From: a phage
Sequence record: OZ336095.1
Length of the DNA stretch: 64,000 nucleotides
Strand: one strand, 5' to 3'
Positions 27,693 through 44,783 of the stretch are shown here, piece by piece. The notes under the pieces are model-generated. The model ran no database searches, was not told the DNA's origin, and saw only the letters and a program-made list of their open reading frames with translations. A program made the position numbers and the translations under genes. Numbering within the stretch: position 1 is the stretch's first letter; the number at the start of each line of letters is the position of its first letter.

Positions 27693-27963
27693 AGAGAAGT
27701 GGGAGATTTTACCATTAGTCAGTGAAGGTGGTAATGGTTGTGAGATGTACATGATACGTGGTCATGTTCCAGAACCAATTGCACTTGAGATGGTAAACAA
27801 CTTTACAGATGGCTCTTACAAAGACTTAGGAGAGCCAACTATAAAGCAGCAATGGGTAAAGCCTGTACCAGACAGCACAGGTAACTGTAGTGTACTTTAT
27901 CACGTTGTAGACCCTGCAAAATGCAAATCTGCAATGGCAGTAACAAACGTAACTTTTGATTGA
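27685..27963 (+). CDS. Hypothetical protein, 92 aa
   Basis: ORF track. Confidence 0.4.
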   Translation: MAKEKWEILPLVSEGGNGCEMYMIRGHVPEPIALEMVNNFTDGSYKDLGEPTIKQQWVKPVPDSTGNCSVLYHVVDPAKCKSAMAVTNVTFD

Positions 27964-27974
27964 GAGAGAAAACT

Positions 27975-28856
27975 ATGAAAACATCTATCCGTGTTACAGT
28001 TCATTCACCAACTAAAGGGACTCATGAAGAAGAGTTTAACATCGTCCAATTCCCTTCTGGTGAGATTGGTGGACACTTTTCGCCAGAGTTTGTTGATTTT
28101 ACTGCTTATGCAGCATCATCTATCAACAATGTGATTATGATTGTAAAAGGTTATGATAAGGACACATTGTTTGCTGTGGCACTTGCTAAAGAAGCAATTG
28201 ATGATTTAGTACCTCATAAGTTTGCTATGAAGACTGCTATCTTTTACTATTTGCCAAATGCACGTTACGACCGTCACATGTTTAAAGGTGATGCAGCAGC
28301 TTTGAAAGTGTTTGCACAACAGGTTAATGCAATGGGTTTTGATGCAGTCTGTGCAGTTGACCCTCACAGCTATGTACCAGATAACCTGTTTAACTGCTTC
28401 CAGAGTATTCCTCAAAAGGAAATTGCAGTCCACTATGCAAATGACCCACTGATTGATTACTTAGTAGCCCCAGATGCAGGTGCTGCTAAGAAGATTGCAG
28501 AGACTGCTAAAGAGGTGGATAAACCATACATCACAATGTCTAAAGTGCGTAACCTTAAGACTGGTGAAATTACTGGTATGCGAATCCTTGATGATGTTGA
28601 TTTGACAGATAAAACCGTCATGATTCTGGATGATATCTGTGATGGTGGTCGAACCTTCATAGAAGCAGCGAAGCATCTTCGTGAAGCAGGTGCAAAACGT
28701 GTGGAACTTTATGTAACACATGGTATCTTCTCTAAAGATGTTGAAAACCTTCTTGACAATGGTATCGACCATATTTACACTACAAACTCTTTAGGCGAAG
28801 CTAAAGACCGTGGCTTAACACATTACAGTCAAGTTACTGTAGCAAACCTTGATTGA
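27975..28856 (+). CDS. Ribose-phosphate pyrophosphokinase (Prs) homolog; candidate ADPR-PP synthetase of NARP1
   Basis: Prs-like motifs FPSGEIGG, YYLPNARYDR, VDPHS, VMILDDICDGGRTF (PRPP-binding loop), GAKRVELYVTHGIFS; ATG at 27975 (track start is TTG); immediately upstream of NAMPT-like gene. Confidence 0.65.
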   Translation: MKTSIRVTVHSPTKGTHEEEFNIVQFPSGEIGGHFSPEFVDFTAYAASSINNVIMIVKGYDKDTLFAVALAKEAIDDLVPHKFAMKTAIFYYLPNARYDRHMFKGDAAALKVFAQQVNAMGFDAVCAVDPHSYVPDNLFNCFQSIPQKEIAVHYANDPLIDYLVAPDAGAAKKIAETAKEVDKPYITMSKVRNLKTGEITGMRILDDVDLTDKTVMILDDICDGGRTFIEAAKHLREAGAKRVELYVTHGIFSKDVENLLDNGIDHIYTTNSLGEAKDRGLTHYSQVTVANLD

Positions 28857-28901: not shown

Positions 28902-30683
28902 ATGACTAAATCACTTTATGCAGTACCAGCAGGTTTAAACGCAGATGCTTACAAATCTGGTCATGTTTACCAGTACCCTAGTGCAACAGAATACTTGATG
29001 TTCAACCTGACACCACGTAGTGACAAATGGTTTAACAGCCCATTAGCAATTGATGGTGTAGTAGCTTTTGGTATTCAACGTTTCGTTAAAGATTACTTGA
29101 TAGACCACTGGAACGCCACTTTCTTTGAACGTGATAAAAAAGAAGCCATTGATGAAATATTAGAAGTCATGAATGGTGTTCTGGGTAAAGATGCTATCGG
29201 TCGAGAGCATTGGGAAGCACTTCACGACTTAGGTTATCTACCAGTTGAAGTATACGCTGTAGAAGAAGGTACAGTTGTCCCTATGCGTGTCCCAATGATT
29301 GTCTTCCAGAACACTGTTTCAGGTTTCCATTGGGTAGCGGGGTATCTGGAAGATGCTTTCTCTGCTGAGATTTGGAAGGCTTGTACCATTGCAACTATTG
29401 CATTGCATTATAAACGCATCTGTAAGAAGTGGGCTGACCTTACTTGCGACAACGACTTACATTTACCTTATCAGTGCCATGACTTTGCTATGCGTGGTAT
29501 GTCCGGCTTTACTGATGACGCATTTAACGCTGTAGGCCACTTAACCAGCTTTAAAGGAACTGATAGCTTCCCTGCTGTGTATACGGCTAAACGAATCTAT
29601 GGACAGTCTTACCCAATCTCTGATATTGGTAGCTCTGTACCAGCCACTGAGCACTCTGTAATGTGTGCAAACATTGCTTGGGAAGGTGGTAATGAGTTGA
29701 TTGAAGAAGAAAGACGCTTTAAAGGTGAGTTACAAACCTTCCGTCGTTTCTTAACAGAAACTTACCCAACTGGTATTGCAAGTATTGTTTCAGATACTTA
29801 TAACTTCTGGAGAACTGTGTCAGAAATCTTACCAGCACTCCGTAAAGAAATTATGGAACGTGATGGTAAACTGGTAATTCGCCCTGACTCTGGAGACCCT
29901 GTACATATTGTCACAGGTTATAAAGCAATCCACTTAGAGTGTGCTAAAAAGGCTTATTACGAGCACCTAAGCAAGCTTGAAGCCAGCGACACAATGTTGA
30001 ATGCTGTTCTGAACATGAAGCTTGAAAACATCAACTATGGTATTGCTGGATGGCTACTGTCAGAAGGCTACGAAATGGTTGTTGACAGAGAAGACTTTGA
30101 AGTTGCTGATACAGTGCTGTTGAAAAACGCTTATATGGTTGGTTCTGCAAACGTTGTAACACGTCCTGTAGCGGAGATTGATGGAGCTATCAAGACACTG
30201 TATAACATCTTTGGGGGAACTATTAACTCTAAAGGGTTTAAGGTACTGGATGAGCACATCGGCCTTATCTATGGTGACTCTATCACGCTGGAACGTGCAA
30301 ACGAAATCATGAAGCGTCTGTATGAAATGGGTTTTGCAAGCTCTAACGTAGTATTTGGTGTAGGCTCTTACACTTACCAGTACATGACTCGTGACACCTT
30401 TGCATTTGCTGTCAAAGCAACTCTTGCAAGCATTGGTGGTAAAGAGATTATGCTTGCAAAAGACCCTAAAACAGATAGTGGTGTTAAGAAATCTGCCTTT
30501 GGTGGTGTAGCACCTATGTGGGATGGTGAAAATCTGAAAGCTGTAGATGGCTATGGGTTCCAGAGCTTTGCAGATGCACTTGAACACCCAGCTTGTGCTT
30601 TACGTCTAGTCTTTAGTGACTCTGAGCAGTTCGGCTACACAACTCTTGGTGATATTCGAAATAATATTGACAAGCAGCTTTAA
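28902..30683 (+). CDS. Nicotinamide phosphoribosyltransferase (NAMPT/NadV) homolog; candidate nicotinamide ADPR transferase of NARP1
   Basis: 593 aa; N-terminal NADAYKSGHVYQYP resembles the NAMPT DSYKVTHYKQYP signature. Confidence 0.7.
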   Translation: MTKSLYAVPAGLNADAYKSGHVYQYPSATEYLMFNLTPRSDKWFNSPLAIDGVVAFGIQRFVKDYLIDHWNATFFERDKKEAIDEILEVMNGVLGKDAIGREHWEALHDLGYLPVEVYAVEEGTVVPMRVPMIVFQNTVSGFHWVAGYLEDAFSAEIWKACTIATIALHYKRICKKWADLTCDNDLHLPYQCHDFAMRGMSGFTDDAFNAVGHLTSFKGTDSFPAVYTAKRIYGQSYPISDIGSSVPATEHSVMCANIAWEGGNELIEEERRFKGELQTFRRFLTETYPTGIASIVSDTYNFWRTVSEILPALRKEIMERDGKLVIRPDSGDPVHIVTGYKAIHLECAKKAYYEHLSKLEASDTMLNAVLNMKLENINYGIAGWLLSEGYEMVVDREDFEVADTVLLKNAYMVGSANVVTRPVAEIDGAIKTLYNIFGGTINSKGFKVLDEHIGLIYGDSITLERANEIMKRLYEMGFASSNVVFGVGSYTYQYMTRDTFAFAVKATLASIGGKEIMLAKDPKTDSGVKKSAFGGVAPMWDGENLKAVDGYGFQSFADALEHPACALRLVFSDSEQFGYTTLGDIRNNIDKQL

Positions 30684-35272: not shown

Positions 35273-35821
35273 ATGAAGAAATTGATTCTAGGTTTGTGCT
35301 TAATGTTTACAGCACACTTATCTTATGCAGTTGACTGCCCAGAGCTATCAATTAGCCAAAAAGTAAACATGTTAAAAGCTTACCAGTATGGTGAGAATAA
35401 CATGGGTAAAGGTTGGGGTATAACTCTAGCTGCTATAGCCTTACAAGAGTCAGAGTTAGGTCTGAAGGTAGAGAATAAAAAGACACATGATTATGGTATT
35501 TTCCAGAATCACTTGAAGACTGTTGTAAAGCGTAACAAAATTAGCCCTAATGTGGCTAAAAAGAAACTCTTAAAAGATTTTGACTATGCTGCGAAGGAAA
35601 CGCACAAAGAACTTGAGTTTTGGACAAAGGTGCATGGTCAGCCAAAGTCAAAGAAGACTTTACAAAAAGTTTTAGCATCATATAATGCTGGGTATTCGTA
35701 CAGAATCCCTAAAGCTAAGAAGTATTCTCAAGATGTCTATAACAACATGAAAGTTATTGCTCAATGTGAATTTGCAACAAACATTTCTAAGGTAAATCAT
35801 GAAAAAATTAAGAAAGTCTGA
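35273..35821 (+). CDS. Secreted lytic transglycosylase-like (SLT domain) protein
   Basis: Signal peptide MKKLILGLCLMFTAHLSYA; AIALQESELG, DYGIFQ, YNAGYSY resemble SLT ES...GLMQ...AYNAG motifs. Confidence 0.5.
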   Translation: MKKLILGLCLMFTAHLSYAVDCPELSISQKVNMLKAYQYGENNMGKGWGITLAAIALQESELGLKVENKKTHDYGIFQNHLKTVVKRNKISPNVAKKKLLKDFDYAAKETHKELEFWTKVHGQPKSKKTLQKVLASYNAGYSYRIPKAKKYSQDVYNNMKVIAQCEFATNISKVNHEKIKKV

Positions 35822-36494
35822 TGAAGTACTGTGTCATGCTTATGACTTACATCCTCATGAGTTAGGTCTTGATTCCTGTGTATGGACTCCAGAACAGTGT
35901 AGGGATTTTGAAGACACCGCAAGAGAGGTTGTATGTTCACTCGAAGAGTTCCACACATCAGAGCCAATTGTTAATGTTGTAGATAAAGAGACTGGACAAG
36001 CTATAGGTGTAAGTCGTGATAGTTTAGTCATAGTCAATAAAGACCTTGTAGAAAAAGGGAATCTCATCTTAGCAGATATTGATGGTGTTCTTACAAATTT
36101 TAATCACGAAGATTGTTCAACGGAATTGACTGACGGTTCATTCTCGCAGTATACCAATCTTCTTGATTCTGTAAGAGCAAAGCCGACGTATGTTTTCAAT
36201 ATCATTGATGCAATTGCTAATCATGCTGCTGTTGGACTCTTGACAGCGAGAGGTGAATCTCAGAGAATACCTACTGAGATGTTTTTAAGGCATAACACAG
36301 AGCATGATTACATGCTTTTTATGCGTGGTTTTGGGACTAACTCTATAAGTGCAGAAAGTTTGAAAGTAAGGATGATTCAGTCTTGCATTCTTCCTTACTT
36401 TAATATAGTATGCTTTATAGAAGACACAGAGAAGAATGTTCAGAAGGTAAACAGAATACTTCCACACATCAAAACCATGTTAGTTAAACATTGA
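35799..36494 (+). CDS. Hypothetical protein, 231 aa
   Basis: ORF track. Confidence 0.45.
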   Translation: MKKLRKSDEVLCHAYDLHPHELGLDSCVWTPEQCRDFEDTAREVVCSLEEFHTSEPIVNVVDKETGQAIGVSRDSLVIVNKDLVEKGNLILADIDGVLTNFNHEDCSTELTDGSFSQYTNLLDSVRAKPTYVFNIIDAIANHAAVGLLTARGESQRIPTEMFLRHNTEHDYMLFMRGFGTNSISAESLKVRMIQSCILPYFNIVCFIEDTEKNVQKVNRILPHIKTMLVKH

Positions 36495-36504
36495 GAGAAA
36501 ACTT

Positions 36505-36969
36505 ATGAACAATATCATTACGGTAGCACTGGACGTTACGGCAAACAAATCTGAAGTAGTTCGTAAAATGATTCAAGGTAACTTTGAAGGTAAAATTTTC
36601 CGTGCTGTTAATGTAAAAGCTGATGGTAGCATTCGTGAATATCGTGCATTGTTGAACGTTAAGAAGCACGTAAAAGGTGTTGGTTCAACGACTGCACACA
36701 AAGAAAACCTGATGACTATCTATGATATGGGTAAGGCTTCAGAGTTAGGTGCTGAAGGTATCGTTAAAGAAGGTGCTCCGTATCGCTCTTTCAATCTGGA
36801 AACTACTCTTATGCTTTCCTTTACAAGTGGTTCTAAAACAATCACTTATCTCTTTACTGATGCTGCAACGGTATCTGCTATTAAGGATAGCACTGTCAAA
36901 GCTGGCGTAGTTGCTGCTGCAAAAGCTTCTTCGATGGCTGCGAATATCCTTGCTAAAGTCCTCGGTTAA
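36505..36969 (+). CDS. Hypothetical protein, 154 aa
   Basis: ORF track; followed by strong terminator. Confidence 0.5.
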   Translation: MNNIITVALDVTANKSEVVRKMIQGNFEGKIFRAVNVKADGSIREYRALLNVKKHVKGVGSTTAHKENLMTIYDMGKASELGAEGIVKEGAPYRSFNLETTLMLSFTSGSKTITYLFTDAATVSAIKDSTVKAGVVAAAKASSMAANILAKVLG

Positions 36970-36981
36970 GGTTAAGATACA

Positions 36982-37002
36982 GGCTCCTTCGGGAGCCTTT
37001 TT
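36982..37002 (+). terminator. Rho-independent terminator
   Basis: ggctcc-ttcg-ggagcc hairpin followed by TTTTT. Confidence 0.65.
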
Positions 37003-37021
37003 CATTTCAGGAGATTGTTAA

Positions 37022-37369
37022 ATGACATTTAAAGAGTTTTGTCAAGCTACTTTCATAATTGTTTTCTTAGTTGGGGCAGGTGTCTGGGGAGGATACTCTT
37101 ACAGAGACTACCAAGTTGCTGAAACTGAGCTAAATAATGAGAAACTAATAAGTGTTGCCAAAGATGCTTATCAGGAAGGTTTAGCCACACTCAGCACCAA
37201 TTACAAAAATGATTTGAAAGATGTGCTTGCTAAGAATAAGCACACAAAAGAGGTACTAACATATGAAAAAACTAAGCCAGAGTTTTATAATGTTTGTGTT
37301 ACTGATAATTATGTCAGGGTGTTCAACGAACAAAGTGAACAGTACATTCAAAAACTCCCAAGTAAGTGA
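37022..37369 (+). CDS. Candidate i-spanin (N-terminal transmembrane protein)
   Basis: 115 aa; N-terminal TM FIIVFLVGAGVWGG; overlaps a lipoprotein gene in another frame. Confidence 0.4.
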   Translation: MTFKEFCQATFIIVFLVGAGVWGGYSYRDYQVAETELNNEKLISVAKDAYQEGLATLSTNYKNDLKDVLAKNKHTKEVLTYEKTKPEFYNVCVTDNYVRVFNEQSEQYIQKLPSK

Positions 37370-37532
37370 GAGTGATAAGTACACTCAAGAAGATTCAAGA
37401 TTCACTATCAAAGGTAATACTGGTAGTGATGTGGCAGCAGCCCTTGAGTTCTATCGTGATGGATTTTACCAGTGCACAATCAAAGCTAATAACCTTATTG
37501 ATATGATTTTATTAGGAAATAAACAGCAATGA
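37263..37532 (+). CDS. Candidate o-spanin (lipoprotein), overlapped with upstream gene
   Basis: 89 aa; signal peptide with lipobox-like IIMSGC; GAGG RBS; start embedded in 3' end of 37022..37369. Confidence 0.4.
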   Translation: MKKLSQSFIMFVLLIIMSGCSTNKVNSTFKNSQVSESDKYTQEDSRFTIKGNTGSDVAAALEFYRDGFYQCTIKANNLIDMILLGNKQQ

Positions 37533-37798
37533 CAGAGAATGAAGATACTTTTTACGTAGAAGGGTACTTACTGTTACCGCGACCAAAAGAAACTTATATG
37601 CGAATTGACTTCATACCAACCATTATGGATAATGTGATGTGTCATATCTTTATGCAGGGTGTCACAGCACAGCTTAAGCATGTTGGTAAAGACTGCAAAA
37701 TAAAGGTTGACACTCATCCAGAAATCAAAGAGAATCACTACACATGGTTCTTACCAGACTCTAAAGAAATCTTAGCAGTTCTCAAAACGAGGAAGTAA
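37529..37798 (+). CDS. Hypothetical protein, 89 aa
   Basis: ORF track. Confidence 0.45.
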   Translation: MTENEDTFYVEGYLLLPRPKETYMRIDFIPTIMDNVMCHIFMQGVTAQLKHVGKDCKIKVDTHPEIKENHYTWFLPDSKEILAVLKTRK

Positions 37799-37800
37799 CT

Positions 37801-38127
37801 ATGCAGATTAATGGAAGAGACTTTGTAGCCGTTTACTACGAGAAAGGTAAAGAGGTTGGTGTAGCACAAGTATCTTATGGCAATGGTAAGTGGCTATATG
37901 GGACAATCGCAGTAGTAGGAACAAGAAGTGATACAAAAACTTTTAAAGATTGTGTTGACCTTCTTGAAGAATCCATACACAATCATTGGTGTCTGATATG
38001 GATGACTGACAACGAAGTGATAGAACGCTTCAAAAAGATTGGTATCAACATTGATAGCATTGAACATGTTGATTTATATGAGCTAACTGAGAAGGTAAAC
38101 TATGAAAGTAATACTAGCCAGAGATAA
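37801..38127 (+). CDS. Hypothetical protein, 108 aa
   Basis: ORF track. Confidence 0.45.
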   Translation: MQINGRDFVAVYYEKGKEVGVAQVSYGNGKWLYGTIAVVGTRSDTKTFKDCVDLLEESIHNHWCLIWMTDNEVIERFKKIGINIDSIEHVDLYELTEKVNYESNTSQR

Positions 38128-38329
38128 AAAGACACGGAAACTTATCAGGTCAGCGGTGTTCATTGGACGAAATAAGGTCATACCATTTGCAGCAAATGAT
38201 GTGATAGCTTACCGGAAGAACTTAGTATTCACTGACTGTTTACGTGGCTTCATCTCTGAACCATTAGAACACTTTAAAAGTCGTTGTGGTAAAGGCATCA
38301 TCATTCAAGAGGTAATTATTCATGGCTGA
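38102..38329 (+). CDS. Hypothetical protein, 75 aa
   Basis: ORF track. Confidence 0.4.
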   Translation: MKVILARDKKTRKLIRSAVFIGRNKVIPFAANDVIAYRKNLVFTDCLRGFISEPLEHFKSRCGKGIIIQEVIIHG

Positions 38330-38522
38330 TTTCTGCAAAGACTGTGCTATCGAAATGTTTGGACGTGATACAGGTGATTTAAAAGGTCTTATCACTGAAG
38401 ATGACTTTAAAGCTGGCTATGCAATGCCAGTAATCTGTGAAGGTTGTGGGTGCATCTGGGTAGACCACGAAGGGCAACGTGTAAAACCTTCAGAAGATAA
38501 AGAATCTTGGGAGAGATGTTAA
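38322..38522 (+). CDS. Small Cys-containing protein, 66 aa
   Basis: ORF track; CKDC...CEGCGC. Confidence 0.4.
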   Translation: MADFCKDCAIEMFGRDTGDLKGLITEDDFKAGYAMPVICEGCGCIWVDHEGQRVKPSEDKESWERC

Positions 38523-39308
38523 ATGGGTATTGTAAAAATCATCAAAGGTGATATCTTTGACGCATTTGATAAAGGTAAGTTTGACATCATTGGTCACGGT
38601 TGCAACTGTATGAACTTCATGGGTGCAGGTATTGCAGCAACTATTTCCAAGCGTTATCCAAAAGTGTATGATACTGACACAGAAGTTTACCTGTTTGCAG
38701 GTGGCATTCGTCACAAACCCTGTGAAAATTTACTAGGTAATTTCTCTGTAGCACGTTTAAAACAAGGCCGTATAGCTAACCTTTACACCCAACTTCATAC
38801 TGGTAAAGATGCCCGATACAGTGCTTTAGAGTCATCTTTGAAACAGCTTAACAGATACTGTGAAGTTAACCAGTTGAAGAAAGTTGGTCTACCTATGATT
38901 GGTGCAGGTATCGGTGGGCTTGACCCTCAAGCTGTCACAGTTATCATTAATCAGGTGATGAAGAGTGTAGATGTTTATCTGTATGTCTATGAAGCAAAAA
39001 TGTATAATGAGTTACACTCAGGTTGGAAAAACTACTGTGAACCAGAATACTTTGCAGGTGTAGTTGTGTTCACAGATAACGAAGTTACCCTCTTCAGACG
39101 AAGAAAAGGTAAGATACATCAAAGTAACCCTCCGGTTGAAAAGATGTCTCTGAGTAACGCTCTAGTTACCCACCTGTCGAAGAGCAATCACAGGATTGCA
39201 GTAACATTTGGCAGTGATGCAGATACTTATATCTATGCAAGAACTGATGAGGATATCGAGACAGTTTTCTCTTCACCAGAAGTTACCTTCTTAGACGCAA
39301 AGAACTAA
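38523..39308 (+). CDS. Macro domain protein (ADP-ribose binding/processing) with C-terminal extension
   Basis: IKGDIFDAFDKGKFDIIGHGCNCMNFMGAGIAATI and GLPMIGAGIGGL resemble macro-domain Gly-rich diphosphate-binding loops. Confidence 0.55.
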   Translation: MGIVKIIKGDIFDAFDKGKFDIIGHGCNCMNFMGAGIAATISKRYPKVYDTDTEVYLFAGGIRHKPCENLLGNFSVARLKQGRIANLYTQLHTGKDARYSALESSLKQLNRYCEVNQLKKVGLPMIGAGIGGLDPQAVTVIINQVMKSVDVYLYVYEAKMYNELHSGWKNYCEPEYFAGVVVFTDNEVTLFRRRKGKIHQSNPPVEKMSLSNALVTHLSKSNHRIAVTFGSDADTYIYARTDEDIETVFSSPEVTFLDAKN

Positions 39309-39374
39309 GAAACTCTGTAGAATATTCACAATAGACCAAGCCTTTCTTATCTGGTAAATTTTTCAGGTAAGGAG

Positions 39375-39560
39375 GGCTTTTTCATTTCAGAATTGTGCAG
39401 GTAGATTTCTATAGAGAAACCTGTAGAGAAAATATTGAACTCCAAAGAGAAAATTCATTTTCAAACTGTGCAGATAATCTCCAAAGAGCTTTTTCATTTT
39501 CAAAACGTGCAGACCCCGCTCAGGTCGGGCAAGGAAAATCATTTTAGATTTGTGCAGGTA
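39375..39560. repeat. Degenerate tandem repeats (four units with core cattttcaaa.ygtgcag) followed by a polypyrimidine tract
   Basis: Units at about 39378, 39451, 39488, 39535; ccctctccccctcttactccccctctcccc at 39585..39615. Confidence 0.6.
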
Positions 39561-39737
39561 GGTTTTTATAGAGAGCCAGACCAACCCCTCTCCCCCTCTT
39601 ACTCCCCCTCTCCCCAAAAGTCAAGAGAAAAATTTGTAGCGGATTGAAAAATAATTCTTGATTTGTGTTCTGTTTTGTGGTAGTCGTGTGCGCCCGTTTC
39701 ATTACAGTTTTGCCAAAAATATTTTTAAAATTTTTTC

Positions 39738-39766
39738 TTGACTCTTTGAACGTGGTTATCTAGTAT
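39738..39766 (+). promoter_or_regulatory. Strong sigma70-like promoter at entry to small-ORF region
   Basis: TTGACT, 17 nt spacer, TAGTAT. Confidence 0.6.
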
Positions 39767-39774
39767 TTGCATCA

Positions 39775-39829
39775 ACGGGGAGGGAATGACCTTCCCCACT
39801 AAATAAAGTCCTAAACTGGAGATTCAAAA
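39775..39829 (+). repeat. Cassette type 1 (hairpin ggggagggaatgaccttcccc + actaaataaagtcctaaactggagattc + ATG)
   Basis: One of six near-identical copies preceding small ORFs. Confidence 0.7.
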
Positions 39830-40213
39830 ATGGCATATCGTGCACCTAAATTCATCAACAAAGACAACTTTCGCAACGCACTGGAGAAGTCACTTGATGA
39901 GAATTTTAAAGGTAACATTATCGTTGTTCACGCATTCAATTTTAAGTATGATGTAAACGGGAATAGAATCAACCATTACACGGCAACCATGTTAGATGGT
40001 ACACTTTCAAGTGAAAAAGCCGTACTAAATGCACTGGCAGGACGTGGAAAGGTATTAGTAAGATGTGATAAGAGACGTTATCAGGGCGGCGCATATGGTT
40101 ATGATGATGCTGTTTACCATCTTGAAAATATGGGCTATCAAGTAGAAAAAGCTGGAGCATCACAAATCATCGGCAGCGATGGTTATGTAACTATCTTCAA
40201 AATTAACAAATAA
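39830..40213 (+). CDS. Hypothetical small protein (cassette ORF), 127 aa
   Basis: ATG directly after cassette RBS GGAG; ends KINK inside next cassette. Confidence 0.5.
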   Translation: MAYRAPKFINKDNFRNALEKSLDENFKGNIIVVHAFNFKYDVNGNRINHYTATMLDGTLSSEKAVLNALAGRGKVLVRCDKRRYQGGAYGYDDAVYHLENMGYQVEKAGASQIIGSDGYVTIFKINK

Positions 40214-40299
40214 AGTACTTTACAAGGGGCTTATAGTTCGATAAAGTAAGCCCCAGATAAAGAGCTTTACCACTAAATCCTAAATTGGAGAACTTAAAA
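40214..40299 (+). repeat. Cassette type 2 (agtactttaca + hairpin ggggcttat...ataagcccc + agataaagagctttaccac.aatcctaaa.tggaga + ATG)
   Basis: One of seven copies; hairpin arms covary between copies. Confidence 0.7.
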
Positions 40300-40593
40300 A
40301 TGGCTATTATCAAAAACGTTGTAATTACTGCAAAGACTCGTGATGACGCTCGCGTTATGGCTAAAAAGTTATGCGGGAAAGTGGTTGACAATGGAAAACA
40401 ATCCGCTGTAAGGTGGGGCGTGAAGGTTGATAAACAGTTGAAGTTAAAAAATTCACCGATAAACCTTTTTACATGTGTAAACACTATCGGGAAGACAAAT
40501 GTATACACGAAAAAGGCATACATTAGGCGCGTAGCATTAACATCCCCCATTCGTACAATGAGAAGTTATGCAAAGCTGAAAATTAACAAATAA
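40300..40593 (+). CDS. Hypothetical small basic protein (cassette ORF), 97 aa
   Basis: ATG at 40300 after cassette (track start 40285 lies in cassette). Confidence 0.45.
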   Translation: MAIIKNVVITAKTRDDARVMAKKLCGKVVDNGKQSAVRWGVKVDKQLKLKNSPINLFTCVNTIGKTNVYTKKAYIRRVALTSPIRTMRSYAKLKINK

Positions 40594-40678
40594 AGTACTT
40601 TACAGGGGGCTTAAAAGTTGATATCTTAAGCCCCAGATAAAGAGCTTTACCACTCAATCCTAAACTGGAGATTCTAAA
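40594..40678 (+). repeat. Cassette type 2 copy
   Basis: Hairpin variant gggggcttaa...ttaagcccc. Confidence 0.7.
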
Positions 40679-41191
40679 ATGAAAACTGTAGACGCTACCT
40701 TTGAAGTTGTAAAAGAAAAATTTTCCATCATCTACGAAGCGGTAAATTGCTACGAAGCAAGCCATAATCTCGATAATTGGGAGTTTACAAACGACCATCA
40801 AGGCGGTGTGACTGTTAAAAATCCTAACTGTCAGCATAATGATTTTAAATATGCAATCCCTTTGCATTACAGCCTTAAACAGCTTTCAAGTGACTATGCA
40901 AAACAAGGCCGGGAAAATCCATCAAAAGAGGCTTACGCAAGCTTACAAAAAGAACTAGAAAGAGATTTAGAGGCTTCAGAGTACAGCCTTGCCGCGAAAG
41001 TTGTGGATGCAAACGGTAACACGGTTTTAGAAAGTTTTTATCTTGGTTATGCTTTCGATTGGTGCTATCGTGACGGCGATGATTTAGAGGATAGACTAAA
41101 AGAAGAGGTGAACAATTCAGACGCAGAAACTGAAGTATTAGAACGTTTGGAATCGTTGAAAGATTCAGTGATGAATATCTTTAAGAACTAA
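40679..41191 (+). CDS. Hypothetical protein (cassette ORF), 170 aa
   Basis: ORF track; cassette upstream. Confidence 0.5.
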   Translation: MKTVDATFEVVKEKFSIIYEAVNCYEASHNLDNWEFTNDHQGGVTVKNPNCQHNDFKYAIPLHYSLKQLSSDYAKQGRENPSKEAYASLQKELERDLEASEYSLAAKVVDANGNTVLESFYLGYAFDWCYRDGDDLEDRLKEEVNNSDAETEVLERLESLKDSVMNIFKN

Positions 41192-41283
41192 ATAGATTTC
41201 TTTACACGGGGTTATCAAGCTGGTAGGATAGCCCCAGATAAAGAGATTTATCAAATAAAGCCCTTAAACTAGGAGATTCTAAA
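41192..41283 (+). repeat. Cassette type 2, diverged copy
   Basis: Hairpin ggggttatc...gatagcccc with compensatory changes. Confidence 0.6.
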
Positions 41284-41580
41284 ATGAAATTATCAAATCA
41301 AGTGCGTGAAAATCTGAGCAAATTACTCAACAAAATTGATTTCATTGAAACATCAAGGAATAGCCATGATGTTATGGAATGGTTACACGGCAAAATAAAA
41401 GGTCGTCGTGTAGTGATTTGCTTATGGAACAGTTGCAGGGAGTATAAAAAACCTGTATTACAAGTCAATATCTATGATGATACTTTTAAAAGTCCAGTAA
41501 AGTCTAAAAGCGATTTATTAGAATCTTATGAGATATCTGTAAATGGCAAAGTATCACGTAATGAGGTAACACCATGTTAA
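41284..41580 (+). CDS. Hypothetical protein (cassette ORF), 98 aa
   Basis: ORF track. Confidence 0.5.
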   Translation: MKLSNQVRENLSKLLNKIDFIETSRNSHDVMEWLHGKIKGRRVVICLWNSCREYKKPVLQVNIYDDTFKSPVKSKSDLLESYEISVNGKVSRNEVTPC

Positions 41581-41906
41581 TGACTGGTATCACTGCAATC
41601 ATTGCCATTTTCGCGCTATATAAGGCATATAAAGCCTATAATCTAGCAAATAAGGCAATCACACAGCAGGTTAGTAATAACCTTGTAGAAAGCTTTCTAG
41701 GGCGCCTCAGTGATGAGCAAATAAAGCGGCTAGAGATGAGCTTCAGATATAAAGCGAAAACCTATCAGATAAGTGACATCTTTAAAGATGATTTTCAGTT
41801 AGTTGATGATTATAATTCTCTGATAAATGCTTTAAACGTCAGTGACTTGAAAGACTATCACGCTGTAATTGTTCAAGAATTGAGCAAACGAAAACAAAAC
41901 TGTTGA
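41574..41906 (+). CDS. Hypothetical protein with N-terminal transmembrane helix, 110 aa
   Basis: MLMTGITAIIAIFALYKAY; start overlaps previous stop. Confidence 0.45.
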   Translation: MLMTGITAIIAIFALYKAYKAYNLANKAITQQVSNNLVESFLGRLSDEQIKRLEMSFRYKAKTYQISDIFKDDFQLVDDYNSLINALNVSDLKDYHAVIVQELSKRKQNC

Positions 41907-41935
41907 CACTGGTTTTCAGATAGATTAAATTACAC
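41907..41935 (+). promoter_or_regulatory. Sigma70-like promoter candidate
   Basis: TTGACA, 17 nt spacer, TAAATT; near-identical copy at 43521. Confidence 0.45.
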
Positions 41936-41939
41936 ACCA

Positions 41940-41994
41940 ACGGGGAGGGAATGACCTTCCCCACTAAATAAAGTCCTAAACTGGAGATTCAAAA
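41940..41994 (+). repeat. Cassette type 1 copy
   Basis: Same hairpin and leader as 39775..39829. Confidence 0.7.
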
Positions 41995-42153
41995 ATGTTT
42001 TTTGCAGGTGATAAAGTTGTCTGGAATGATATAGATGACGGTTTATGTACGAAAGTTGTTGTTATCTTAGAAATTGATTATATCACTGGTGTTGCAACTG
42101 TAGCAGATAATGATATAATCTTTGATGTCTTAATTAGTGAACTGTCAAAATAA
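41995..42153 (+). CDS. Hypothetical small protein, 52 aa (below ORF-track cutoff)
   Basis: ATG directly after cassette; MFFAGDKVVWNDIDDG...VADNDIIFDVLISELSK. Confidence 0.35.
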   Translation: MFFAGDKVVWNDIDDGLCTKVVVILEIDYITGVATVADNDIIFDVLISELSK

Positions 42154-42178
42154 AATCCTTAAACTAGGAGCTTTTAAA

Positions 42179-42451
42179 ATGTACACTACTAACAACGGTC
42201 GCACTTTAAACGTAACCCTTCGTCACTATGTGAACGGTGTAATGCACTTCGAGGATTTACAAGCCGAACAACATATCTTAGATTGGCAACTAGCAGGACT
42301 CCAAAAAACTGCTACCGGATACGGCAAAAAGATTCCAACTAGCTGGAAAGTACACTATGAAGGACGTTTGCGCAGAATTTACCAAGATGTATGCAGCAAT
42401 AGCGCATCTAGTTACATCATAGTAAAAGGTAAAAAGCTGCATTTAGTATAA
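42179..42451 (+). CDS. Hypothetical small protein, copy 1 (90 aa)
   Basis: ATG after AGGAG RBS (track start 42137 is GTG); MYTTNNGRTLNVTLRHYVNG... Confidence 0.45.
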   Translation: MYTTNNGRTLNVTLRHYVNGVMHFEDLQAEQHILDWQLAGLQKTATGYGKKIPTSWKVHYEGRLRRIYQDVCSNSASSYIIVKGKKLHLV

Positions 42452-42536
42452 AGTACTTTACAGGGGGCTTATAAGTCTGTACAGTAAGCTCCCGATAAAG
42501 AATTTTATCACTCAATCCTAAATTGGAGACTCTAAA
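42452..42536 (+). repeat. Cassette type 2 copy
   Basis: Identical to copy at 43027..43111. Confidence 0.7.
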
Positions 42537-42692
42537 ATGGCTATTAATAATCGTGAACTGGCTGTATTAAAAGCACGTTTGACCGTCAACCGCATCAACG
42601 TTATTACATCAGCAGCACCGGACGAAACATTACACACTGTAGCAGATAATGATATAATCTTTGATGTCTTAATTAGTGAACTGTCAAAATAA
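42537..42692 (+). CDS. Chimeric small ORF created at duplication junction (51 aa)
   Basis: N-terminus equals start of 43112 ORF (MAINNRELAVLKARL...), C-terminus equals end of 41995 ORF (...VADNDIIFDVLISELSK); in frame across junction at 42635/42636. Confidence 0.3.
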   Translation: MAINNRELAVLKARLTVNRINVITSAAPDETLHTVADNDIIFDVLISELSK

Positions 42693-42717
42693 AATCCTTA
42701 AACTAGGAGCTTTTAAA

Positions 42718-43026
42718 ATGTACACTACTAACAACGGTCGCACTTTAAACGTAACCCTTCGTCACTATGTGAACGGCACTTTAAACGTAACCCTTCGTCA
42801 CTATGTGAACGGTGTAATGCACTTCGAGGATTTACAAGCCGAACAACATATCTTAGATTGGCAACTAGCAGGACTCCAAAAAACTGCTACCGGATACGGC
42901 AAAAAGATTCCAACTAGCTGGAAAGTACACTATGAAGGACGTTTGCGCAGAATTTACCAAGATGTATGCAGCAATAGCGCATCTAGTTACATCATAGTAA
43001 AAGGTAAAAAGCTGCATTTAGTATAA
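42718..43026 (+). CDS. Hypothetical small protein, copy 2 with 12-aa internal duplication (102 aa)
   Basis: Same as 42179..42451 plus duplicated TLNVTLRHYVNG. Confidence 0.45.
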   Translation: MYTTNNGRTLNVTLRHYVNGTLNVTLRHYVNGVMHFEDLQAEQHILDWQLAGLQKTATGYGKKIPTSWKVHYEGRLRRIYQDVCSNSASSYIIVKGKKLHLV

Positions 43027-43111
43027 AGTACTTTACAGGGGGCTTATAAGTCTGTACAGTAAGCTCCCGATAAAGAATTTTATCACTCAATCCTAAATTG
43101 GAGACTCTAAA
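43027..43111 (+). repeat. Cassette type 2 copy
   Basis: As above. Confidence 0.7.
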
Positions 43112-43516
43112 ATGGCTATTAATAATCGTGAACTGGCTGTATTAAAAGCACGTTTGACCGTCAACCGCATCAACGTTATTACATCAGCAGCACCGGACGA
43201 AACATTACACAACATTATCGGGAAGATTCAAGGCGTTATCTTAGACGTTGAAAATGTAAAAAACTCATTAGCCGACGTTGCAGCAGGTATCACACTAGAT
43301 GGCGCACAATATGAAATGTCCGACATGTTAGGTAAATCAAAGGTAATGAATAAAGAGATTGATTTAAAAATGTTTAGATTTGCCGTGAAAGTGTGGCTAT
43401 CTGTTGAGTATGACGCTAATTTTGCAATCGCTGATTTCTTTGCCACATGGTTGCAACGTAATTTGGCGAGTCATGACTTCCGTGACATCTGCGATGCAAT
43501 TTACGCAGAACTCTAA
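43112..43516 (+). CDS. Hypothetical protein (cassette ORF), 134 aa
   Basis: ORF track. Confidence 0.5.
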   Translation: MAINNRELAVLKARLTVNRINVITSAAPDETLHNIIGKIQGVILDVENVKNSLADVAAGITLDGAQYEMSDMLGKSKVMNKEIDLKMFRFAVKVWLSVEYDANFAIADFFATWLQRNLASHDFRDICDAIYAEL

Positions 43517-43520
43517 AAAT

Positions 43521-43549
43521 TTTATTGACACTGATTTTTAGATAGATTA
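43521..43549 (+). promoter_or_regulatory. Sigma70-like promoter candidate
   Basis: TTGACA, 17 nt spacer, TAAATT. Confidence 0.45.
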
Positions 43550-43561
43550 AATTACTCATCA

Positions 43562-43617
43562 ACGGGGAGGGAATAACCTTCCCACTAAGTAAAGTCCTTA
43601 AACTAGGAGATTCAAAA
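43562..43617 (+). repeat. Cassette type 1 copy
   Basis: Slightly diverged hairpin. Confidence 0.65.
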
Positions 43618-43866
43618 ATGATGAATTTTTTAAATATCCCTGATACTTGCCGACTGTTGACGCAACCAGAAAATTTAGGCAAACCTTTCCTGTACCATAT
43701 GCCAGACAATACACCAAAAACATATAGCTACACGGTTAACCGCTTTACGGGTTACGCTGCAAAAAACGGTTACAAGGTTACTACTCAAAAAGTAACACTA
43801 TTTACAAATATCGAAGAGCTTCCAACAATCGCTGTAAAACTAATATTTACGAAGAAGACGCAATAA
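43618..43866 (+). CDS. Hypothetical protein (cassette ORF), 82 aa
   Basis: ORF track. Confidence 0.45.
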   Translation: MMNFLNIPDTCRLLTQPENLGKPFLYHMPDNTPKTYSYTVNRFTGYAAKNGYKVTTQKVTLFTNIEELPTIAVKLIFTKKTQ

Positions 43867-43951
43867 AGTACTTTACAGGGGGCTTAAAAGTTGATATCTT
43901 AAGCCCCAGATAAAGAGCTTTACCACTAAATCCTAAACTGGAGATTCTAAA
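43867..43951 (+). repeat. Cassette type 2 copy
   Basis: As above. Confidence 0.7.
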
Positions 43952-44155
43952 ATGACTATTATTAACGGCGTATCTATCGAGACTGTACATATCAAAGACA
44001 TTAAAGTTGGTGATGTAGTCCTTTCCCACGGCGTAGAGAAAACTGTCACTGCAAAGGATATCAAAGATGATTCTTTCATGGGTAGAACTCTCTTCGGTGA
44101 TTCTTATTGCTTAGGTTATCTTGCAGTTTTAAAAGTTGTAAAAAATAACAAATAA
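43952..44155 (+). CDS. Hypothetical protein (cassette ORF), 67 aa
   Basis: ORF track. Confidence 0.45.
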   Translation: MTIINGVSIETVHIKDIKVGDVVLSHGVEKTVTAKDIKDDSFMGRTLFGDSYCLGYLAVLKVVKNNK

Positions 44156-44240
44156 AGTACTTTACAAGGGGCTTATAGTTCGATAAAGTAAGCCCCAGAT
44201 AAAGAGCTTTACCAATCAATCCTAAACTGGAGATTCTAAA
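44156..44240 (+). repeat. Cassette type 2 copy
   Basis: As above. Confidence 0.7.
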
Positions 44241-44783
44241 ATGAAATGTTTTCACGGTACTACTCAAGAAAATTTCCTCAACCTGATTAATAACGGTAAC
44301 AAGCCATCAGGTGCATGGAATTGTTCGGATATGGACGGCAATTTTTACGTGTATCCAGAAAATAAAATCTATGGCGACGATGAGGAAGAGATAACATCGG
44401 AGGGCATTCAGCAAGCTCTAGGCAATGCCACTATCACCGCAGCTTTTCAGATGAAGACTCAAAATATTGTTATCTTAGAACTCGATATTCCAGAGGATGA
44501 GCTAAATGATGATTATTCTTGTGATAATATGTCTGGCGTAGCAAGTTTTACAGAATACTTCGATTTAAATTGGATTAAAAAGGTTTACGTAACCGAGTTT
44601 AATGCGATGTTTTCACCTTTTTGTCTTCCTTCACTGGATAACCCAAATATGAACTATCTTGATGAGACATTAGAACTACTTGCTAAAAGTGTTCAACAAT
44701 CGGACAGTATTCAGGTTTTTTGTGACATCATGGATACACTGACAGAAAACATCGCAGAAGAGGATTTAAAGAGCTTTTTCTAA
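44241..44783 (+). CDS. Hypothetical acidic protein (cassette ORF), 180 aa
   Basis: ORF track. Confidence 0.5.
   Translation: MKCFHGTTQENFLNLINNGNKPSGAWNCSDMDGNFYVYPENKIYGDDEEEITSEGIQQALGNATITAAFQMKTQNIVILELDIPEDELNDDYSCDNMSGVASFTEYFDLNWIKKVYVTEFNAMFSPFCLPSLDNPNMNYLDETLELLAKSVQQSDSIQVFCDIMDTLTENIAEEDLKSFF

Follow-up and report, generated by a model that had tools for sequence, protein, structure and literature searches.

Macrodomain proteins of phages have been connected with two kinds of counter-defence. In phage T4 the protein Tk.4 was named AdfM (anti-DarT factor Macrodomain) in the HIDEN-SEQ preprint, in which transposon screening and a clean deletion showed it to be required by T4 for resistance to DarTG2 (bioRxiv 10.1101/2025.11.20.689424), and PhiKZ gp104, likewise named AdfM, strips DarT2-made ADP-ribose from DNA in vitro. 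In the Vibrio phage Gary the macro protein Adpp (KNV71_gp137) is encoded in the NARP1 operon and converts ADP-ribose-1″-phosphate (ADPR-1″-phosphate) into ADP-ribose (ADPR; bioRxiv 10.64898/2026.01.28.702374); the RES-domain defence aRES produces its substrate, and from its output NARP1 can rebuild NAD+. The criterion used for associating a macro gene with NARP1 is a distance of at most two genes from Adps or Namat (bioRxiv 10.64898/2026.01.28.702374). The phage in which NARP1 was originally defined is the Felixounavirus Bas63 (genes 79-80). Here we describe, in a 64,000-nucleotide stretch of phage DNA (sequence record OZ336095.1; hereafter the window), the gene at 38523-39308, which is predicted to encode an enzyme of the same macro subfamily as Tk.4 and Adpp and for which we tentatively favour a Tk.4-like role against DarTG2.

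Macrodomain fold and active site

A first-pass annotation of the window had described a 261-aa protein at 38523-39308 with two macro-like Gly-rich motifs and a C-terminal extension of about 100 aa. The open reading frame (ORF) is present as described, both motifs were located (GHGCNCMNFMGAGIAATI at residues 24-41 and GLPMIGAGIGGL at residues 122-133), and the extension corresponds to residues 158-261, modelled as a folded domain.

38523-39308, plus strand: coding sequence of the 261-aa two-domain macro protein, ATG start, stop included (ORF listing and translation)
38523-38993, plus strand: macro domain, residues 1-157 (Pfam, PADLOC, NCBIfam, alignments and fold matches)
38994-39305, plus strand: C-terminal extension, residues 158-261 (104 aa), an orphan domain with one helix, six β-strands and a short helix in the predicted structure

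The macro assignment is far beyond chance. Residues 25-141 match Pfam PF01661 (Macro) at 30 bits, above its gathering score of 22 (E=5.3e-7), and two DarG models are matched over their macro half, i.e., the DarG model of PADLOC (E=5.7e-15, profile positions 5-146 of 329), which is the sole PADLOC family matched, and NCBIfam NF048014 (E=9e-15, profile positions 2-152 of 338, with a score of 54.7 bits where the cutoff is 250). A profile of the family found TARG1 in the PDB at E=1e-15. The structure prediction and comparison with DarG-type families that the first-pass annotation had proposed were run and returned a macro fold, in agreement with the Pfam and DarG profile matches: an AlphaFold2 model built on 28 homologs (pLDDT, the predicted local distance difference test, 90.6; pTM, the predicted template modelling score, 0.88) has the three-layer alpha/beta/alpha architecture and was matched by Foldseek with probability 1.00 to TARG1, DarG, Poa1p and the nsP3/Nsp3 macrodomains, the template modelling (TM) scores being 0.87 for TARG1, 0.84 for Thermus aquaticus DarG, 0.79 for Mycobacterium tuberculosis DarG and 0.77 for yeast Poa1p. 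The signature motifs are H25-G-C-N28-C, M33-G-A-G-I-A, N86-L-Y-T-Q90 and P124-x-I-G-A-G-I-G-G. The ADP-ribose-binding loops are intact; the diphosphate-binding loops M33-G-A-G-I-A and I126-G-A-G-I-G-G align with those of TARG1 and DarG, and G36, G127 and G129 are invariant in the family alignment. By fold, loops and homology the gene is thus predicted to encode an ADP-ribose-processing (macro) enzyme.

The first-pass annotation was silent on the exchange of lysine for glutamine at the DarG/TARG1 catalytic site and on the orphan nature of the extension. In pairwise, profile and multiple alignments, with DarG sequences taken from PDB entries, Gln90 stands in the column of DarG K80 ("NFPTK" in M. 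tuberculosis) and TARG1 K84 ("YLITK"), and Gly131 replaces TARG1 D125. Glutamine occupies this column in the window protein, in T4 Tk.4 and in the Adpp sequences examined ("NLYTQ" or "N[LV]YGQ"), the exception being a glutamate in one relative from IMG/VR (L081). H25, N28 and Q90 are invariant in a 28-sequence alignment (A2), and three IMG/VR relatives carry Gln at position 25; Poa1p H23 is the equivalent of His25 (H-x-C-N-C motif). The proven activity of the type without lysine is hydrolysis of ADPR-1″-phosphate (Gary Adpp; bioRxiv 10.64898/2026.01.28.702374). Reversal of DarT2 modification by this type is supported only through T4 genetics, and its mechanism is a puzzle reaching beyond this window. 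When plasmids were searched for a true DarG by tblastn with the macro domain, the best matches were generic macro or SLOG proteins.

Relationship to Tk.4, Adpp and the NARP1 genes

The window protein is 35% identical to T4 Tk.4 over the macro domain (E=5e-24), 28% to Gary Adpp (E=6e-15) and 25% to PhiKZ gp104 (E=2e-5), and T4 Tk.4 is 35% identical to Gary Adpp (E=2e-23); by these values Tk.4, Adpp and the window protein are members of a single subfamily, with PhiKZ gp104 being a true DarG-type macro protein. T4 Tk.4 (L002:5926-6390) is equally close to Adpp and to the window protein (35% each). The name AdfM covers two macro types, the DarG-type of PhiKZ gp104 ('MFPTKDNW') and the Poa1p/Adpp-type of T4 Tk.4 ('NLYTQ').

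In a neighbour-joining tree the window protein and T4 Tk.4 fall into a clade characterized by H-G-[CA]-N-C and N-x-Y-T-Q (hereafter the T-Q clade), in which the window protein and the T4-like sequences belong to a subclade with the signature G-x-G-I, G-x-G-L being found in another subclade. The T-Q clade does not include the Gary-type Adpp group, whose motifs are H-Q-x-N-C, N-x-Y-G-Q and G-x-G-L.

The window is a Felixounavirus (FelixO1/VpaE1-like), a genus of whose core the macro gene is part. In a 6-kb segment that includes the gene, identity to Escherichia phage vB_EcoM_ULIM3 is 96.8%. Escherichia phage VpaE1_ev78 encodes a protein with 100% identity to the macro protein, and the full two-domain form, taken as a coverage of at least 80%, occurs in 259 phage records. 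The homologs are usually annotated in GenBank as "phosphatase" or "hypothetical protein", and PHROG 335 'phosphatase' is matched at E=5.7e-115; this database label originates, via Poa1p, from the clean-up of ADP-ribose 1″-phosphate (Appr-1″-p). The PhageMaP essentiality preprint on Bas63 does not mention the macro gene. A GenBank record labelled 'Staphylococcus phage SA1' (GU169904) is 93% identical over 6 kb to positions 36000-42000 of the window; the record is probably chimeric or contaminated, because a Staphylococcus host is implausible for a Felixounavirus segment.

The NARP1 genes of the window lie upstream of the macro gene on the same strand:

27960-28856, plus strand: Adps-like NARP1 gene, phosphoribosyl-pyrophosphate-synthetase fold (Pfam Pribosyltran and Pribosyl_synth)
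28902-30683, plus strand: Namat-like NARP1 gene, NAPRTase/NAMPT fold (Pfam NAPRTase, E=9.5e-35)

The Namat-like gene is 95-99% identical across Felixounavirus records. The two genes end 7.8 kb upstream of the macro gene, with 12 ORFs (including rIIA, rIIB and a RegB-like gene) and two terminator-like sites between them (terminator-like sites, here and below, are pattern evidence from a consensus scan). The first-pass annotation had placed the macro gene near the NAD+ genes, which is true only in a loose sense; its description of the NAD+ enzymes as adjacent was overstated, since the distance exceeds the two-gene criterion. Any functional link between the Adps-like gene and the macro gene is hypothetical.

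From IMG/VR, 79 related loci were taken with 10-kb flanks and the NARP1 genes were mapped onto them. The layout of the window protein, a macro domain with extension (259-264 aa; L003-L027), came only from Ounavirinae-like contigs, and wherever their flank reaches far enough Adps and Namat are found 7.5-7.8 kb upstream of the macro gene. Among the 56 other relatives (54 short ones of 146-195 aa, plus L043 and L054 of 245 and 249 aa, which are unrelated long proteins with other layouts) L066 alone has Adps or Namat within 10 kb, in its case an Adps homolog. Coupling is also weak among the Escherichia phage records of GenBank, 994 of which have a macro homolog and 192 a Namat/NadV homolog, so that the macro family is mostly independent of NARP.

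The RegB-like gene (35273-35821) and a HAD/polynucleotide-kinase-like gene (35799-36494) lie a few kb from the macro gene. In T4 (60.9-62.7 kb) tk.4 stands beside vs, vs.1 and regB, a likeness to the Felixounavirus neighbourhood; the shared setting of tk.4/macro and regB may be a remnant of a common early-gene neighbourhood.

A variable C-terminal domain

In the full-length model the C-terminal domain has pLDDT values of 81-94 per 10-residue block (the last residue apart; 80 when folded alone) and is packed against the macro domain (pTM 0.88). A profile of the domain searched against 1.84 billion representative proteins retrieved its own family only (P0002 and two fragments, P0029 and P0031), and a fold search of BFVD found only the SUSP2 homolog. 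P0029 and P0031 were considered as stand-alone C-terminal domains and rejected, being fragments of the family; the ten 'matches' in P0030 (2374 aa), a low-complexity YDG-repeat surface protein, are spurious. A resemblance to the DarT-binding half of DarG was also rejected, the DarG hidden Markov models (HMMs) stopping at the macro half. Homologs of the domain differ in isoelectric point (4.6 to 8.9) and in net charge, which makes a conserved basic nucleic-acid-binding surface unlikely.

The locus varies between close relatives. In L025, a Felixounavirus contig from IMG/VR, Adps and Namat are 97-98% identical to those of the window and the flanks of the macro gene have about 94% nucleotide identity, but in the comparison of L025:10001-10777 with the window nothing aligns at 38664-39494; the macro protein encoded there is 39% identical with the same two-domain layout, and the C-terminal domain of this divergent allele (P0009/L025) is homologous to that of the window at 26% identity (E=3e-9). 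The difference is a cassette-like replacement the size of a gene, as often occurs at counter-defence loci. Other Ounavirinae-like macro proteins (P0010-P0012, L026 and L027, including those of Pectobacterium phages Arno162 and Wc4-1) carry extensions of similar length. The extensions of about 100 aa of the Pectobacterium-phage type and of the L026/L027 type have no detectable similarity to the C-terminal domain of the window. The C-terminal module thus seems replaceable.

A targeting or protein-binding role of this domain is speculation. There is a small chance that it forms a second, non-enzymatic counter-defence module, which might block DarT2 or aRES or tether the protein to single-stranded DNA or the replisome, so that the logic of DarG (a hydrolase joined to a toxin binder) would be realized through an unrelated fold and the enzyme might serve both DarTG2 evasion and the feeding of NARP1. 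We mention it because the domain is an orphan, confidently folded, packed on the macro domain, swapped or replaced between sister lineages and variable in charge. An orphan C-terminal domain and allele swapping together are likely to mark an arms-race locus.

Possible roles of the protein

Our leading proposal, held with rather less than even confidence, is a counter-defence role against DarTG2 like that of T4 Tk.4/AdfM. The gene product would be an ADP-ribose hydrolase of the phage Tk.4/Adpp macro subfamily ('Gln-type', Poa1p-like), whose enzymes are expected to remove the group attached at C1″ of the distal ribose of ADP-ribose. The macro domain would bind the DarT2-made ADP-ribosylated thymidine on single-stranded phage DNA and release ADP-ribose, which would restore replication in DarTG2 hosts; the lineage-specific C-terminal domain would act outside the catalytic core as an accessory module (substrate targeting, partner or toxin binding). 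The substrate, the host system countered and the C-terminal role are what we infer here. Several results favour this proposal: T4 Tk.4, whose knock-out sensitises T4 to DarTG2, is the nearest characterized relative and has H-G-C-N-C, N-L-Y-T-Q and G-x-G-I in common with the window protein, the sole PADLOC match is to DarG, the model resembles DarG and TARG1 in fold, 95 of 100 bootstrap replicates put the window protein at a shorter distance from T4 Tk.4 than from Gary Adpp, the macro family occurs mostly independently of NARP with an Adps homolog near only one of the 56 other relatives, and the NARP1 genes, being 7.8 kb and 12 genes away, are not in an operon with the macro gene. The allele swap and the non-homologous extensions in sister lineages fit an arms-race gene that engages macromolecules.

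A number of observations weigh against it. The lysine and aspartate positions of DarG/TARG1 are occupied by Gln90 and Gly131, and the lysine is needed in DarG and TARG1 to cleave ADP-ribose from thymidine; PhiKZ gp104, the macro protein proven to act against DarT2, keeps it ('MFPTKDNW') and has no more than 25% identity with the window protein. The T-Q clade has a bootstrap support of 49/100 and includes two NARP1-adjacent macro proteins (that of the Acinetobacter phage phiAbaA1 and L066), and clade-specific HMMs do not discriminate, the window protein scoring 104.5 bits with the Gary type and 100.0 bits with the T4-like type, against 163.1 bits with the general T-Q clade. For Tk.4 the evidence is purely genetic, from a single preprint (bioRxiv 10.1101/2025.11.20.689424), and the literature searched contains no report of a Felixounavirus tested on DarTG2.

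It is possible, if somewhat improbable, that the macro protein is instead an Adpp whose gene is unlinked, i.e., an ADPR-1″-phosphate phosphatase that turns the product of RES-type NAD+ phosphorolysis (aRES) into ADPR for the phage's own NARP1; this would be the 'NARP1-AP' pathway with its third gene 7.8 kb away, and it is compatible with a role against DarTG2. The protein belongs to the same subfamily as the validated Gary Adpp, with which it has the constellation of His, Asn and Gln in common (His and Asn also with Poa1p), macro proteins without the lysine are proven ADPR-1″-phosphate phosphatases, and NARP1, defined in a Felixounavirus, is present in the same genome. The defence aRES, which defeats plain NARP1, is found in E. 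coli, Klebsiella and Enterobacter (bioRxiv 10.64898/2026.01.28.702374). The relative position of macro gene and NARP1 is kept across Ounavirinae even where the macro proteins are 39-65% identical, but a constant position is what any pair of core genes would show in a collinear genus, and terminator-like sites part the two units. Lying more than two genes from NARP1, the macro gene falls outside the operational definition, phages of Escherichia and Salmonella are missing from Table S1 of the NARP1-AP study (bioRxiv 10.64898/2026.01.28.702374), and the motifs H-G, Y-T-Q and G-x-G-I follow T4 Tk.4, not the H-Q, Y-G-Q and G-x-G-L of Gary. A metabolite phosphatase also gives no obvious reason for a variable extra domain or for allele swapping. 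The roles of a Tk.4-like protein and of an unlinked Adpp are not mutually exclusive. The two functions that the first-pass annotation had offered thus each have a precedent in a homolog, the removal of DarT-type ADP-ribose in T4 Tk.4 (35% identity) and the feeding of ADPR to NAD+ enzymes in Gary Adpp (28% identity), the genes in the latter case not being adjacent here; sequence alone does not choose between them for the window protein, and motifs and distances lean towards Tk.4.

We regard it as unlikely that the enzyme acts on another conjugate of ADP-ribose, such as ADP-ribosylated RNA (e.g., of the CmdTAC type) or proteins, O-acetyl-ADPR, ADPR-derived immune signals or the Appr-1″-p left by RNA repair. 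Macro domains of this fold class are reviewed as acting on many C1″/2″ adducts, TARG1 is the best fold match, and the early region with its RegB-like and HAD/polynucleotide-kinase-like genes recalls the tk.4-vs-regB cluster of T4; no homolog of the subfamily has been shown to use such substrates, a Tpt1/KptA-type producer of Appr-1″-p is absent among the neighbours scanned, and both characterized relatives point elsewhere. Least probable of all, and very much so, is a non-catalytic binder that would sequester ADP-ribose derivatives or shield ADP-ribosylated sites, with the C-terminal domain supplying the real activity. The loss of the catalytic Lys and Asp of DarG/TARG1 would suit it, and phage 'sponge' proteins for nucleotide signals exist; but the same site without lysine is active in Gary Adpp, Poa1p is catalytically active without lysine as well, and the near-invariance of H25, N28 and Q90 fits conserved chemistry.

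Transcription unit and surrounding sequence

The macro gene is the last of a tightly packed plus-strand unit (i-spanin, o-spanin, four small ORFs and macro) bounded by terminator-like hairpins at 36981-36998 and 39338-39379. Signals and neighbours next to the gene are:

38322-38522, plus strand: Cys-rich ORF of 66 aa (CxxC...CxxCxC), directly upstream (ORF listing, sequence read)
38509-38515, plus strand: Shine-Dalgarno sequence GGGAGAG, 7 nt before the ATG (sequence read directly)
39338-39379, plus strand: hairpin resembling an intrinsic terminator, 30 nt past the stop, with a 17-bp stem and a T-run behind it (consensus scan)

The TAA stop of the 66-aa ORF (38520-38522) abuts the macro ATG (TAAATG), a contact that suggests translational coupling of the two genes. 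This ORF is zinc-ribbon-like and has no Pfam match. The hairpin at 39338-39379 probably ends the transcription unit that would start after the terminator at 36981-36998. No Pfam match above the gathering score and no ADP-ribosyltransferase family was found among the neighbours (small phage ORFs, spanins).

The macro gene is followed by an ORF-poor gap of 520 bp (39309-39829) with the strong terminator-like hairpin, beyond which direct repeats form two pairs (39382-39417/39539-39574 and 39440-39474/39479-39513). An Rfam scan of 36-48 kb gave a sub-threshold mir-329 match only, which is attributed to chance, and none in the gap. Further repeats lie downstream: between 39777 and 46636 an intergenic cassette recurs before at least nine small plus-strand genes, consisting of the hairpin GGGGAGGGAATGACCTTCCCC and then ACTAAATAAAGTCCTAAACTGGAGATTC(A/T)AAAATG, which gives a Shine-Dalgarno sequence and ATG, and a 120-nt repeat family has six copies from 40199 to 44260. 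These cassettes and repeats are probably reiterated modules of terminator and ribosome-binding site or of early promoters. Two segments are duplicated with 100% identity (42201-42500 = 42776-43075, 300 nt; 42097-42237 = 42636-42776, 141 nt), and from these exact copies a very recent tandem duplication of a unit of about 540-575 bp with a small gene can be deduced.

Comparison with described systems

A macro gene in a large myovirus will be of little surprise to the specialist. Felixounaviruses are common coliphages and Salmonella phages that are candidates for therapy, and they were the model for the discovery of NARP1. If the gene is an unlinked Adpp, the published figure of 15% of NARP1 phages with the phosphatase would be too low, and resistance to aRES is to be expected of Felixounaviruses; an AdfM of the Tk.4 type would extend anti-DarTG2 activity to another major phage group. 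Either reading sharpens the question of how thymidine ADP-ribosylation could be reversed by a macrodomain without the lysine, or whether the T4 phenotype has another origin.

Among the described systems, T4 Tk.4 has the identical motifs H-G-C-N-C, N-L-Y-T-Q and G-x-G-I, is likewise an orphan without toxin partner, and is encoded in the early region of an E. coli phage as well; it differs in being a single-domain protein of 155 aa, whereas the window protein has the additional C-terminal domain of 104 aa, and in that the window phage encodes NARP1, which T4 is not known to do. Gary Adpp belongs to the same Gln-type macro subfamily and both phages encode Adps and Namat, but its gene lies in or next to the NARP1 operon, and the protein has H-Q-C-N-C, N-V-Y-G-Q and G-C-G-L and no C-terminal domain. 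DarG (M. tuberculosis 5M3I, T. aquaticus 5M31/5M3E), PhiKZ gp104 and TARG1 (4J5S) are the closest in fold (TM 0.79-0.87) and have the same diphosphate-binding loops; in contrast to DarG, the window gene comes without the catalytic Lys, a DarT neighbour or a matching C-terminal toxin-binding domain. Yeast Poa1p (6LFQ), an ADP-ribose-1″-phosphate phosphatase, resembles the window protein in fold (TM 0.77), in the motif H-x-C-N-C and in having no lysine either, but it is a single-domain housekeeping enzyme of eukaryotic tRNA splicing with about 23% structure-based identity. The macro domain of the window is accordingly an additional member of the known phage Tk.4/AdfM-Adpp subfamily, and what is new is its fusion to an orphan domain and its unlinked but syntenic relation to NARP1.

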